From: a phage
Direction: 5' to 3' (one strand)
NCBI GenBank assembly: GCA_012060505.1
Contig: GCA_012060505.1_3027.2
DNA: 15,812 nt
Position numbers and translations under genes: made by a program. How positions within the stretch are numbered: position 1 is the first letter of the stretch; each line of letters starts with the position of its first letter. The notes below the pieces were generated by a model, which ran no database searches, was not told the DNA's origin, and was given only the letters and a program-made list of their open reading frames with translations. This document shows, piece by piece, positions 7,016 through 15,812 of this stretch.

Positions 7016-8029
7016 TCATTTATAATAACTTCGGTGGTTTTCAAGATAGACCTTCTCAAGGAAGTCATCCCAGAAACCCATGTCTACTTTTTGCTGCATA
7101 CCGTTCTTAGAAGCTTCAATAGATGCTGCTTCTACTTGATCGACCACATCTTCCAAAAACTCTTGAACTGTTTTAAATGGATGTTTACCCAACTTCACGT
7201 CGAGAATAAATGGAGCATCTTGAAGTGGATAAACCAAGTCACCAGTTTTGTAAATTTCCAATAGTTGAAGTCCACCACGGCAAGCATGGCTCAGAGCTTT
7301 CCAGTCAATACCTTCATTGGCTTCGGCCTTACGAGCACGTTCACCGTATTCGGCATCAAGTTTATTCAAAGACTGCTTAAGCTCAATAAGAGAAAGCGTT
7401 GTCTGATATTTACGACCCAACACAGTGTAGAACGTTTGTGGACCGGTTTTCTCATGATTATGGAATACCCATTCACAAAACTCGTTTTCAGGGAGTCGGT
7501 GTTTGATATCTTCTACCTTAGTTCGGCGTAAACGATCTGGAATTCCCTCTTGGTAATCAACCCACTGGTCAGGGATTTGATTAACTACTTTCAATACATC
7601 ACGTAATGCGGCCAAACGAGAACCCTTGACACCGTATTTAGAAGCTTGCTTGCGAACATATCCTAAATAGGATTTCATGTTAGTCGTATAAAAACGAGAA
7701 CGATTGTCTTGAATAAACTTCCATACATCAGGCAAATCAGATTTAACTACCAGTTCAAGTGGAGTGTGGAGCATATCCAATGCTACGGTTTCACCATCTG
7801 CTGCTAATTTAAAGAAATATTTAAGACTGTATAGTTCATGGTCAATATCATCTTTGGTGTTTTTAGATGATGTGTTGTTAGTGTTTTTACTCATATGCTC
7901 TTTGACATTTCCGATAAGAATATCGCGAGCAGGAGGAACAAAGATTTCTTTAAAATCTACATCAGATTCTGGAGTAGAAGTTCCATAAAGATGACTACCA
8001 AAATAGCTTTTCATTACTGTTTTCATCAT
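7016..8029 (-). CDS. Pol-beta-superfamily nucleotidyltransferase-fold protein, 337 aa
   Basis: N-terminal motif GSHLYGTSTPESDVDF (G[SG]-x9-13-D-x-D) plus downstream acidic ALD; ATG 8027-8029 overlaps the upstream stop as ATGA. Confidence 0.75.
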   Translation of the reverse strand: MMKTVMKSYFGSHLYGTSTPESDVDFKEIFVPPARDILIGNVKEHMSKNTNNTSSKNTKDDIDHELYSLKYFFKLAADGETVALDMLHTPLELVVKSDLPDVWKFIQDNRSRFYTTNMKSYLGYVRKQASKYGVKGSRLAALRDVLKVVNQIPDQWVDYQEGIPDRLRRTKVEDIKHRLPENEFCEWVFHNHEKTGPQTFYTVLGRKYQTTLSLIELKQSLNKLDAEYGERARKAEANEGIDWKALSHACRGGLQLLEIYKTGDLVYPLQDAPFILDVKLGKHPFKTVQEFLEDVVDQVEAASIEASKNGMQQKVDMGFWDDFLEKVYLENHRSYYK

Positions 8030-8487
8030 TCAGCCTTATATTCAATAACAGGACATACTTTAGCTTTACGAGCTTTTAAAAATTCAACGATAATCGATTT
8101 CTTGGGTTGAATAGGAGGTAAACCTTTATACGCCCTATCAATATTTTCTACGTGTAAAGCATAGTCCTTTTTCCATTTATAATCTTTATATTTTTCACGC
8201 AGTTGTGCAGGAATAACAAATGAACCGATAATAAGTAAAACAACCAAAAGCGCAAGTATAAATGCTGATGGAAGCAAAGTCCATAAACTACCGAAAATAA
8301 GCCAACGTTGTAGGCTTTCTGCACAAATAATTGTTAGCCCTATGAGTATAGTACACCCAAAAATAGAAACGAAAAATGTAGGTATGGCAATAGACCAAAA
8401 ATATGCGCATAGTGTCTTAGGTCGTTGCCATTCATCGTTAAACAATTTGAATAATTTATAGTGCCAAGAGTTTTCATTAATAATCAT
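8026..8487 (-). CDS. Predicted multi-pass membrane protein, 153 aa
   Basis: ORF track; ATG 8485-8487 with SD AAAGGA; three long hydrophobic segments. Confidence 0.7.
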   Translation of the reverse strand: MIINENSWHYKLFKLFNDEWQRPKTLCAYFWSIAIPTFFVSIFGCTILIGLTIICAESLQRWLIFGSLWTLLPSAFILALLVVLLIIGSFVIPAQLREKYKDYKWKKDYALHVENIDRAYKGLPPIQPKKSIIVEFLKARKAKVCPVIEYKAE

Positions 8488-8489
8488 AA

Positions 8490-9011
8490 TTATCCTTTCA
8501 TTGAAGGCGTAACGGTTGTTAAATACTTAATCATAGCTTCAGCTTCTGATTTTGATAGTGAAATTTCTTCACCGTTTTGGCGAATAGAAACAAAATCTGG
8601 ATGACGATCACCACCAGCTTTTAAAACACACATATAAGTATCAGCTTCGCCTTCAATATTTGAAATGATTGAAGCAGTTCCACACGAATGTGGTTTTTGA
8701 TAAATCAATACAGCTTTTCTTCCACCATTTGACTGTTCATAGGCTTTTAATACATCAAACAAATCAGTTCTTTTATCAATAGCTAAAATGTTATTTTCAT
8801 CTTCAATGTTAAATCCTTCGGATACTTCATAAAGCGTTACCCATAAATCGCCAATATCAATAACAGCATTTACTTTTCCACGGCTTTCAAGAGTATGACA
8901 AATTTTCTTGATTTCGTCATAACTCATTTTAATAATATCATCTCCTTGACTAAGGAAGATGTCATTTTTAAATTCAACACGAATTAAACCGCTTCCACTT
9001 GAAATAAACAT
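8490..9011 (-). CDS. Hypothetical 173-aa protein, paralog of the next gene
   Basis: ORF track; ATG 9009-9011 with SD GAGGAAAT; C-terminus EAEAMIKYLTTVTPSMKG resembles the C-terminus of the 9018-9560 product. Confidence 0.7.
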   Translation of the reverse strand: MFISSGSGLIRVEFKNDIFLSQGDDIIKMSYDEIKKICHTLESRGKVNAVIDIGDLWVTLYEVSEGFNIEDENNILAIDKRTDLFDVLKAYEQSNGGRKAVLIYQKPHSCGTASIISNIEGEADTYMCVLKAGGDRHPDFVSIRQNGEEISLSKSEAEAMIKYLTTVTPSMKG

Positions 9012-11702: not shown

Positions 11703-12284
11703 CTAACCGAGCTTTTTAGTTAATTCATTCCAATGTTTTCTACACAAAGAAACATAAATTTCATCACCAATACAGATTTGATTACCTTCTTTAACTGGTG
11801 TTCCATCTTCCATTAATCGAGCTGTCATAATCGCTTTTTTGCCGCAATGACAAACTGCCTTTAGTTCAATAAGTTTATCTGCAATCGCTAAAAGTTCTTT
11901 AGAACCTTCAAACAATTTTCCAGCGAAATCAGTCCTTAATCCATAAGCCATAACAGGAACATTATATGTATCAACAATTCGACTTAATTGATGCACCTGT
12001 TCAGTTTTTAAAAATTGGGCTTCATCTACAAATACGCAATGAATATCTTTTTGTGCTTCAGCCCATTTATAGAACTCGAAAATATCCATATCATCTGTAA
12101 TAATATTCGCTTCCTGTTTAATTCCAATGCGAGAAACAACTTCACAGACAGAATCGCGAGTATCAATAGCAGGCTTAAGAACTAATACACTCATTCCACG
12201 TTCTTTATAATTATGTGCAGCAGTCAAAAGAGAAGCAGATTTTCCAGCATTCATTGCTGCATAAGTAAAAATTAAACTCGCCAT
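11703..12284 (-). CDS. tk: Thymidine kinase, 193 aa
   Basis: P-loop AAMNAGKS at the N-terminus, C-terminal Cys cluster (CHCGKK ... CIGDEIYVSLCRKH) typical of type II thymidine kinases; SD AAGGTGA. Confidence 0.93.
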   Translation of the reverse strand: MASLIFTYAAMNAGKSASLLTAAHNYKERGMSVLVLKPAIDTRDSVCEVVSRIGIKQEANIITDDMDIFEFYKWAEAQKDIHCVFVDEAQFLKTEQVHQLSRIVDTYNVPVMAYGLRTDFAGKLFEGSKELLAIADKLIELKAVCHCGKKAIMTARLMEDGTPVKEGNQICIGDEIYVSLCRKHWNELTKKLG

Positions 12285-12293
12285 ATCACCTTC

Positions 12294-12479
12294 TTAAAGC
12301 GTATTCACATAAGCTATTAATTCATTTTCTTTCTTATCAAACCGATCAGCAAATTCTTCCTGCTGTTCGGGAGATAGCGGGCCGTATTCATCATAAAAGG
12401 TGTTTGCTTCTGTATGCTCATCTAGAAGTTCATGGATAAGCTCAAACAATTTATCTTTTTGTTCTTTACTCAGACTCAT
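12294..12479 (-). CDS. Small acidic helical protein, 61 aa, paralog-family member
   Basis: ORF track; ATG 12477-12479; N-terminus MSLSKEQKDKLFELIHELL. Confidence 0.6.
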   Translation of the reverse strand: MSLSKEQKDKLFELIHELLDEHTEANTFYDEYGPLSPEQQEEFADRFDKKENELIAYVNTL

Positions 12480-12649
12480 ATATTAATTTCCAGGAGTTTT
12501 AAAATAATTCGCTTTTGCTTAAATATTTCCATAGTTAAATGACCAGTATCTTTTTGACCGATTCCAATGGCAAAACCTTTATTAACAGCGAGTTCAATTA
12601 AATTATCAAGCTCACGTAACACTTCGTATTGTAACTCAAAACTATTCAT
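12476..12649 (-). CDS. Hypothetical 57-aa protein (below ORF-track threshold)
   Basis: Manual translation MNSFELQYEVLRELDNLIELAVNKGFAIGIGQKDTGHLTMEIFKQKRIILKLLEINI; ATGA overlaps at both ends link it to its neighbours. Confidence 0.5.
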   Translation of the reverse strand: MNSFELQYEVLRELDNLIELAVNKGFAIGIGQKDTGHLTMEIFKQKRIILKLLEINI

Positions 12650-12852
12650 TTTGGTTTACCTTCTTTAACGAAATCAGGATAAGGATAAAATCCTGAATAA
12701 AATCCTTCACCTTTATGATTGATGCATCCTTTATTAGAACAATAGCACCAATAATCGAAATCACAAGCCATTTCATCATTACATAAAGCAAAAACAACCG
12801 GCCACTTACACTTTTCACAATGGGCATTTTTAAGAATACTAGTTTGGCTCAT
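12646..12852 (-). CDS. Small Cys-rich protein, 68 aa, probable zinc binder
   Basis: Start taken at ATG 12850-12852 (ATGA overlap with upstream stop); seven Cys including CEKC and CYC. Confidence 0.6.
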   Translation of the reverse strand: MSQTSILKNAHCEKCKWPVVFALCNDEMACDFDYWCYCSNKGCINHKGEGFYSGFYPYPDFVKEGKPK

Positions 12853-15201: not shown

Positions 15202-15467
15202 TAGTATTTTTCCTCTGGTTGGAACACTGCACGACAAGCCCACATACTGGCTTCTTTGAGTTTCGTTTTAGCAATAGTTAACTGATCGAGGCTTTCAGCA
15301 TAATTCTTCGCGAGTTCATCATCTTCACAGCTATCAAATGCTTCCCAAAATTCATCGTATAAAGCGTCAAAGATAAGTCCCAAACGAACTTCAGCGTCTT
15401 TAATAGCATTTACTTTACCGATTTTTTCGTCGGTATGTGGCTTATAACCTTTAATATCTTCAATCAT
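15201..15467 (-). CDS. Hypothetical 88-aa acidic protein
   Basis: Track ORF begins at a TTG; ATG at 15465-15467 has SD GAGGAAG and is preferred. Confidence 0.55.
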
Positions 15468-15681
15468 ATTTGACTTCCTCACCAGTACATAAATCATATT
15501 CAACTAAACGAATAGGTTCATGAATGCCATATCCTTGAACAGAAATTTCTGTCGTAGGATAAATTCCATCAATATCACTCATGTTCCATGCTTCGTTAAA
15601 TTGCTGTTCGCCTGAATTACTAAACCACTCGGCGAAAGCATTTAGCACATCTTCAGAACCTTCAATAATTATCTTTGCCAT
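15460..15681 (-). CDS. Hypothetical 73-aa protein
   Basis: ORF track; ATG 15679-15681 overlaps the stop of the GrcA-like gene as TAATG. Confidence 0.6.
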   Translation of the reverse strand: MAKIIIEGSEDVLNAFAEWFSNSGEQQFNEAWNMSDIDGIYPTTEISVQGYGIHEPIRLVEYDLCTGEEVKYD

Positions 15682-15812
15682 TACAAACTCTCGGTAAAGG
15701 TACGAGCGATAACGTCGCGCTGCTGTTCCGGAGTCAGAGAGTTAAAGCGAACTGCATAACCGGATACACGGATGGTCAGCTGCGGATATTTTTCCGGATG
15801 CTTAACTGCATC
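15682..15812 (-). CDS. Autonomous glycyl-radical cofactor (GrcA/YfiD-type), C-terminal 43 aa only; gene starts beyond window end
   Basis: Minus-strand translation [43 protein letters not shown]-stop carries the PFL-type glycyl-radical motif RVSGYAV; segment is about 49% GC. Confidence 0.85.

Follow-up and report, generated by a model that had tools for sequence, protein, structure and literature searches.

Stand-alone glycyl-radical proteins that repair oxygen-damaged pyruvate formate-lyase (PFL) are known from Escherichia coli and from phage T4. The PFL-activating enzyme (PFL-AE) installs the radical on E. coli YfiD as well as on T4 Y06I, and each of the two proteins reactivates oxygen-cleaved PFL (Wagner 2001, from Knappe and co-workers, as cited in PMC8683613 and also in PMC13450708). 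According to PMC8683613, no other spare-part protein for glycyl radical enzymes has been validated experimentally. Nolan et al. 2006 (PMC1524935) report conservation of vs.6, the T4 gene for Y06I, in six of the six T4-like genomes compared. Mechanistically, the host activating enzyme installs the radical on the glycine of the C-terminal glycyl-radical domain in the 120-aa Y06I. This domain then docks into a host PFL that has lost its own to cleavage by oxygen, and activity is restored. The gene may thereby keep PFL supplying acetyl-CoA, ATP, and formate in microaerobic infected cells. Formate is the reductant of the class III ribonucleotide reductase, which T4 encodes, and vs.6 may have relevance to the formate supply of this enzyme.

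Exchange between phage genes and their host counterparts has been described for the photosynthesis genes of T4-like cyanophages. Phage copies of psbA and psbD contain internal patches of host-type G+C content and sequence that testify to repeated exchange with the host (Sullivan et al. 2006, PMC1484495). As a host-derived metabolic gene with intragenic host patches in T4-like phages, psbA is the closest precedent for the structure presented here. The two cases differ in gene, hosts, and environment. Furthermore, the patch in vs.6 corresponds to a single structural domain, has the same edges in two genera, and matches two enterobacterial hosts at 97-98%.

The locus considered here lies at the end of a 15,812-nt stretch of DNA, which was analyzed as a whole and is referred to as the window. 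Its source is a Tequatrovirus (T4-like phage). Its alignment with T4 covers nrdC.1 to vs.6 by way of tk, vs, and regB, and every gene lies on the minus strand. Identity to T4 reaches 91.5-95.6% over four long aligned blocks, although the window is closer to Escherichia phage vB_Eco_QOTSP and lacks mobD. Among the records listed, Tequatrovirus genomes share 97.7-98.6% identity with the last 1,013 nt of the window, and the corresponding open reading frame (ORF) is annotated in them as autonomous glycyl radical cofactor or vs.6. QOTSP is the best match (98.6%), and 495 phage records hold most of this stretch.

The gene at the window end is T4 vs.6 (T4p117, NP_049730, historically Y06I), already known and biochemically characterized. 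It shares strand and place with its T4 orthologue in the tk-vs-regB-vs.3-vs.8 cluster, as well as the TAATG coupling to vs.5. Position (regB-vs.3-vs.4-vs.5-vs.6-vs.7-vs.8), strand, and high DNA identity all place it in the T4 vs.6 orthologue group. Over its 363 nt, T4 vs.6 is 98.3% identical to that of QOTSP, the nearest full-length relative, and two synonymous sites separate the T4 gene from the stretch in the window. About 234 nt of the 5' part lie outside, beyond the window end. In the closest relatives (98-99% identical to the window), vs.6 is an intact ORF of 120 aa preceded by vs.7. The features within the window are collected in Table 1. Translation of vs.5 is probably coupled to that of vs.6; the host sequence at the position of the overlap is TAAGG, without an ATG.

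Table 1. Features at the vs.6 end of the window, with coordinates in the numbering of the window.
Feature	Coordinates	Strand	Evidence or remark
vs.6 (T4 Y06I), last 43 sense codons	15684..15812	-	Translation, Tequatrovirus identity, Pfam Gly_radical, NCBIfam GrcA positions 84-126
Putative host-derived patch, in-window part: 119 nt identical to E. coli grcA including synonymous sites	15694..15812	-	Continues past window end
GGT codon of the radical-bearing glycine of RVSGYAV (Gly95 in T4 Vs.6, Gly102 in E. coli GrcA, Gly734 in PflB)	15759..15761	-	
Last four sense codons ACC GAG AGT TTG (E. coli ACT GAA AGC CTG), phage-type 3' edge of patch	15684..15695	-	
TAATG overlap: vs.6 stop TAA (15681-15683) and ATG of the next gene (15679-15681)	15679..15683	-	
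vs.5, 73 aa, AT-rich phage sequence, downstream of vs.6	15460..15681	-	

Protein comparisons support the assignment. The 43 aa encoded in the window match Pfam Gly_radical (PF01228) with E = 3.7e-10, compared with 9.6e-18 for full-length T4 Vs.6, and include the radical-glycine motif RVSGYAV. Residues 58-120 of T4 Vs.6 align with PFL 697-759 (E = 2.8e-25), and residues 22-120 align with the YfiD NMR structure 6OWR (E = 4.5e-41). Against the GrcA equivalog model of NCBIfam (TIGR04365), the window fragment scores 90.2 bits. T4 Vs.6 scores 151.1 bits over model positions 25-126 only, below the cutoff of 170 bits, because its N-terminal half has diverged. Vs.6 is a phage subfamily and not a full-length orthologue of bacterial GrcA.

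What sets this end of the window apart is its composition. An initial annotation of the sequence reported about 49% GC for the last 131 nt (15682-15812), from a count of 65 in 132; recounting gives 65 of 131 nt (49.6%), against 34.7% in the remaining window. The sliding-window and codon-usage analysis suggested there bears the contrast out. No overlapping 131-nt window (mean 0.347, sd 0.044) exceeds the GC content of this segment (z of about 3.4), and none outside the last 200 nt equals it; the next peak there is 0.473 at 7212-7406. Its codons are host-type: all nine Leu, Arg, and Pro codons are CTG, CGY, or CCG, compared with 158 of 693 in the other ORFs of the window (p = 2e-6). The 43 residues are 100% identical to E. 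coli GrcA, as anticipated when the peptide was read as the C-terminus of GrcA/YfiD, and the gene that T4 was said to carry is indeed vs.6. At the DNA level, every one of 5,426 complete E. coli genomes has a grcA that is 96.9% identical to the 131 nt. When the whole 15.8-kb window was compared with these genomes by megablast, the grcA-like stretch at the 3' end was the sole matching part (grcA, plus a weaker match of 86% to pflB). All four mismatches to E. coli grcA are synonymous and lie in the last four sense codons, with the mismatched bases within 15684-15693. The compositional boundary had been placed at the TAATG junction; the overlap is real, but the boundary is not exactly there, the last four codons being already phage-type. 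The second-highest GC island mentioned above lies inside the nrdC.11 (nucleotidyltransferase) homologue and has no DNA match to E. coli genomes.

Because the window stops inside the gene, the mosaic structure of vs.6 was analyzed on full-length relatives, namely QOTSP, two T4 records, CCU7, RB69, and six IMG/VR contigs. In a codon alignment of T4 vs.6 with E. coli grcA, the two ends of the gene behave differently. Nucleotide identity is 43.9% over the 60 alignable N-terminal codons, 45 of which carry non-synonymous changes, and 98.3% over the last 60 codons, with three synonymous and no non-synonymous differences. The perfect run between the two genes extends over 164 nt (T4 CDS nt 193-356). 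GC content rises from 0.33 in the 5' half to 0.49-0.50 in the 3' half. Protein identity to E. coli GrcA (YfiD, PDB 6OWR) is 100% over the C-terminal 60 residues (about 98% in DNA), and the proteins share the RVSGYAV motif and the role of spare domain for PflB. By contrast, the phage protein is 7 residues shorter and has a changed N-terminal half, and its last codons and flanks are phage sequence. The host-like part is confined to Glu61 to Glu118, which is the glycyl-radical domain and aligns with PFL 700-757; the full patch covers about 164-176 nt, or T4 Vs.6 codons 61-118.

The N-terminal half is AT-rich and shows 73-75% DNA identity to the vs.6 genes of Jiaodavirus and Karamvirus, which lie in the same regB/vs neighborhood. 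It is still homologous to GrcA at the protein level (ARxIVxK, ED, and RE.x.E motifs), and tblastn located this phage-type half in 1,013 phage records. Since it matches other phage vs.6 genes at the same genomic position, vs.6 appears to be an old phage gene. Its end would look host-like because the radical-bearing half has been overwritten with E. coli grcA sequence.

Pairwise distances over the last 180 nt point to the donor. T4 differs from E. coli at 3 positions, from another Escherichia species at 4, from Citrobacter amalonaticus at 15, and from Salmonella at 31; E. coli itself differs from Citrobacter at 12 and from Salmonella at 28. The nearest neighbor of the T4 patch was Escherichia in 1000 of 1000 bootstraps and, as in psbA-type mosaics, the N-terminal part groups with phages. 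These distances imply that the transfer postdates the split of Escherichia from its sister genera. The E. coli-type patch also occurs in vs.6 of RB69, a Mosigvirus (L177:10064-10426), with three differences in the first 168 nt, and is joined there to an N-terminal half of the CCU7 type. The interior of the RB69 patch carries one non-synonymous change, from Val to Ile. A donor role of pflB was considered and rejected, as the identity to E. coli pflB is 86%, compared with 96-97% to grcA, and the PflB protein differs (TKEQQQDVITRTFTQSM).

A codon close to the 5' edge of the patch merits separate mention. Almost all E. coli-type phage patches encode Gln65 (T4 CDS nt 190-192) by CAA, which they share with one non-coli Escherichia genome (L003), whereas the 5,426 E. 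coli genomes invariably have CAG. The CAA codon could go back to a polymorphism in the donor or to a mutation acquired later by the phage, or it could mark the true 5' edge of the tract.

A corresponding patch of different origin is found in Jiaodavirus (PSE-D1, KPV15, and IMG/VR contig L120), whose members infect Klebsiella. The C-terminal part of vs.6 has a GC content of 0.57-0.58 in these phages. The patch is 97.1% identical to K. pneumoniae grcA, the sequence of which was taken from a chromosome that PLSDB lists among plasmids. Within its first 168 nt, the patch shows 4 differences from this allele and 11 from the next-nearest sampled bacterial grcA. It differs from E. coli at 24 of 180 nt, and the other sampled enterobacterial genera (K. 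pneumoniae left aside) are 17-21 differences away. K. pneumoniae was the nearest neighbor in 953 of 1000 bootstraps. The edges are as in T4, with phage-type AAA ATT/GTT just before GAA GG and the terminal codons ACA GAG GCA CTA. Compared with all phages, the K. pneumoniae allele matches 106 records at 95-99% and 28 at 90-95%. Among the matches listed, those of at least 94% are all Klebsiella phages, and E. coli phages reach 86-88%, which equals the distance between E. coli and Klebsiella. Two amino-acid differences between the host alleles (LEDAVK vs LLDAVE) partition the phages likewise. Jiaodavirus and K. pneumoniae thus provide an independent host-matched occurrence in another phage lineage. 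Regarding the bacterial records, the PLSDB entries L175 (CP125156.1) and L176 (LR134122.1) are filed as plasmids and include a 5.37-Mb K. pneumoniae chromosome labeled 'plasmid unnamed2'. The grcA gene of K. aerogenes NCTC10006 is annotated as truncated owing to a frameshift.

Other phage genera encode the same small stand-alone type of protein with a near-invariant C-terminal domain, including Slopekvirus, Karamvirus, Krischvirus, T5-like Tequintavirus, and jumbo phages, and they do so without a recent host patch. The N-terminal halves of T5-like and Krischvirus GrcA differ from the T4 type. No recent patch was found in Slopekvirus, Pseudotevenvirus, Karamvirus, Krischvirus, or T5-like phages, which show 29-52 differences in 180 nt from any sampled bacterium. 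Given these unpatched genera of Klebsiella, Enterobacter, and E. coli phages, the process appears to be sporadic and not universal. No Salmonella-matched patch was detected among the phages searched, the best phage match to the 3' end of Salmonella grcA being 83.8%, and the IMG/VR contigs contained no host-matched patch beyond Tequatrovirus and Jiaodavirus. Several IMG/VR contigs that had seemed to be patched phages have bacterial GC content (about 0.5): L164-L174 carry pflB 3' ends and L123 a Yersinia-like grcA, and bacterial DNA is their probable source. Beyond the T4-like phages, stand-alone GrcA homologues occur widely. The GrcA of T5-like phages (L091, L137-L162) differs in its N-terminal half, and its diverged radical domain lies 44-48 differences from any sampled bacterium. 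Jumbo phages of 345-357 kb (L119, L121, L122) also have one; the C-terminal part, measured in L121 only, shows 46 differences. In fENko-Kae01 (360 kb) and TH47 (352 kb), the matches are to the phage-type N-terminal half only.

Together, these comparisons favor a reading to which we assign a probability of roughly 80%. An old phage vs.6 would have had its radical domain (codons 61-118) replaced through homologous recombination with host grcA, from E. coli in Tequatrovirus and Mosigvirus and, independently, from K. pneumoniae in Jiaodavirus. Replacement by the allele of the current host on at least two occasions is the best explanation of the sequence patterns. A broader proposition, toward which the balance tilts only slightly, is that the radical domain is repeatedly re-copied from grcA of the current host. 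The protein would then track the PflA/PflB allele by gene conversion and not by point mutation.

The replacement could proceed in a manner resembling marker rescue. Host chromosomal DNA would have recombined with an ancestral phage copy whose radical domain shared roughly 75-85% identity with that of host grcA. Rescue of markers from homologous DNA present in the cell is an efficient activity of the T4 recombination system. Both patch edges would be set in this process because crossovers can fall only within the block of phage-host homology. On the 5' side, the limit would lie at Glu61, upstream of which host and phage are not alignable. On the 3' side, TAATG would be kept because it holds the start codon of vs.5, which the host sequence TAAGG lacks. 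Once part of the block had become host-identical, further exchange would be easier, and the tract could extend to the limits of homology, which is where its edges are found. Replacement would be tolerated and perhaps favored (neutral or beneficial), since the domain must fit host PflA and PflB. The early breakdown of host DNA in T4 infection limits the opportunity for such exchange.

The number of events is a more delicate matter. Between T4-type and RB69/CCU7-type genes, the N-terminal part holds 18 fixed differences in 183 nt and the patch interior none in 155 nt (p = 1e-5). Counting synonymous codons only, the values are 11 of 61 and 0 of 52, respectively (p = 8e-4). Along the T4-CCU7 alignment from vs.7 through vs.4, identity is 65-88% in vs.7 and vs.5, 85-93% in the 5' half of vs.6, and 98-100% in the patch. 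Judged by these values, the patch arose later than the phage lineages in which it occurs. Either the E. coli allele entered Tequatrovirus and Mosigvirus separately or repeatedly, or one patch spread between phages.

The latter course underlies the strongest competing explanation, in which one conversion took place per host type (E. coli, Klebsiella) and was followed by spread among co-infecting T4-like phages, with no ongoing host conversion. The edge states are the same in nearly all E. coli-type phages (CAA near the 5' edge, GAG/AGT near the 3' edge), as spread from a single source would predict, and T4-like phages recombine readily with each other. Homing-endonuclease (HEG)-mediated and homologous exchange are treated in PMC2993671. 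However, the shared edge states may be ancestral phage sequence outside the tract. Moreover, passing the patch without its diverged flanks across two genera requires crossovers inside a 170-nt block each time, and the 18 fixed N-terminal differences directly adjoin a patch that has none. The data are compatible with this course as well as with repeated conversion from the host; we consider spread from one conversion per host rather unlikely, albeit worth serious attention.

Import of the complete gene is a far weaker contender. The initial annotation had read the segment as a recent capture from an enterobacterial host, and under this explanation a whole grcA would be freshly acquired and not yet drifted to phage composition. 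The visible part fits, with its 96.9% identity to E. coli grcA, high GC content, and host codon usage, and it does appear to be recent and derived from the genus Escherichia. The capture of an entire gene does not follow, because the 5' half is phage-type in the relatives: their 5' 180 nt are 44% identical to E. coli grcA, have 33% GC, and are 73-75% identical to the genes of other phage genera. The annotation itself stated that disappearance of the GC shift over a longer flank would count against capture, and in relatives 98-99% identical to the window, the shift is gone upstream. Saturation at synonymous sites affects the 5' half but leaves those of the 3' half untouched, a pattern that one recent import cannot explain. 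Whole-gene capture is accordingly rated as highly improbable.

Extreme purifying selection on the radical domain, combined with convergent codon usage, could in principle generate similarity without any recombination. All phage and bacterial homologues have nearly the same C-terminal 60 residues, and the C-terminal part is somewhat richer in GC than the N-terminal part in every phage group. Nevertheless, the same constraint leaves 28 differences between E. coli and Salmonella and 34-45, mostly synonymous, between T4 and Slopekvirus, Karamvirus, or Krischvirus, compared with only three between T4 and E. coli. Where K. pneumoniae and E. coli differ, Jiaodavirus has the K. pneumoniae state, and selection at the protein level cannot fix host-specific synonymous states. 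This explanation is scarcely credible.

The two weakest explanations carry negligible weight. The position of the host-like stretch at the very end of the window might raise suspicion of host reads in a phage contig or of a chimeric window, but the junctions are in frame, the terminal codons are phage-specific, and the same junctions recur across hundreds of genomes that were sequenced independently, among them the T4 reference and RB69. A reverse transfer, by which E. coli would have obtained the radical-domain half of its grcA from a phage, has nothing specific in its favor beyond a near-identity that by itself has no direction. It is countered by the presence of grcA in all 5,426 genomes with host GC content and codons, and a separate occurrence in K. 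pneumoniae would be needed. Both halves of E. coli grcA are evenly related to their orthologues (88.6% to Citrobacter in the N-terminal part and 93.3% in the C-terminal part), and the direction is therefore taken to be from host to phage.

The searchable literature, including Nolan 2006 (PMC1524935) and Petrov 2010 (PMC2993671), yielded no description of the vs.6 mosaic, and a mention in Wagner 2001, Miller 2003, or Bowman 2019 is possible. The host-matched conversion patch is apparently an undescribed detail of modest interest. If the broader, host-tracking reading of repeated re-copying from host grcA is correct, strictly lytic T-even phages recombine with the host chromosome in nature despite degrading host DNA, and vs.6 would offer a clear and datable case. 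A marked patch, in the presence or absence of host grcA, could then serve as a simple measure of such recombination, and the natural patch could indicate the recent host of a phage lineage. It would also suggest that the fit between the phage radical domain and host PflA-PflB is under selection, or at least maintained by conversion. A practical caution concerns annotation, since islands of GC content or identity at a window edge can be partial conversion tracts and not whole imported genes.

Several minor observations accompany the genome comparisons. In RB55 (L084:601-950), 13 nt are deleted from the patch of vs.6, whose ORF lacks an annotation, and in KPV15 (L087:601-962) a frameshift splits the gene into two CDS; these disruptions represent either gene decay or sequencing error. 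The T4 reference NC_000866 (L094:17058-17420) encodes His at residue 74 (LRHETLED), where the T4 record OZ209057, the lineage of the window, and E. coli GrcA have Arg. This His74 may be an old sequencing error or a strain variant. Finally, two stretches of the window cannot be aligned to T4. At 8030-8993, the mobD homing-endonuclease gene is replaced by two small ORFs on the minus strand (8026-8487 and 8490-9011), and the stretch at 12284-12848 differs in the tk.1-tk.2 region. Both differences are typical of the mosaicism of T4-like phages.
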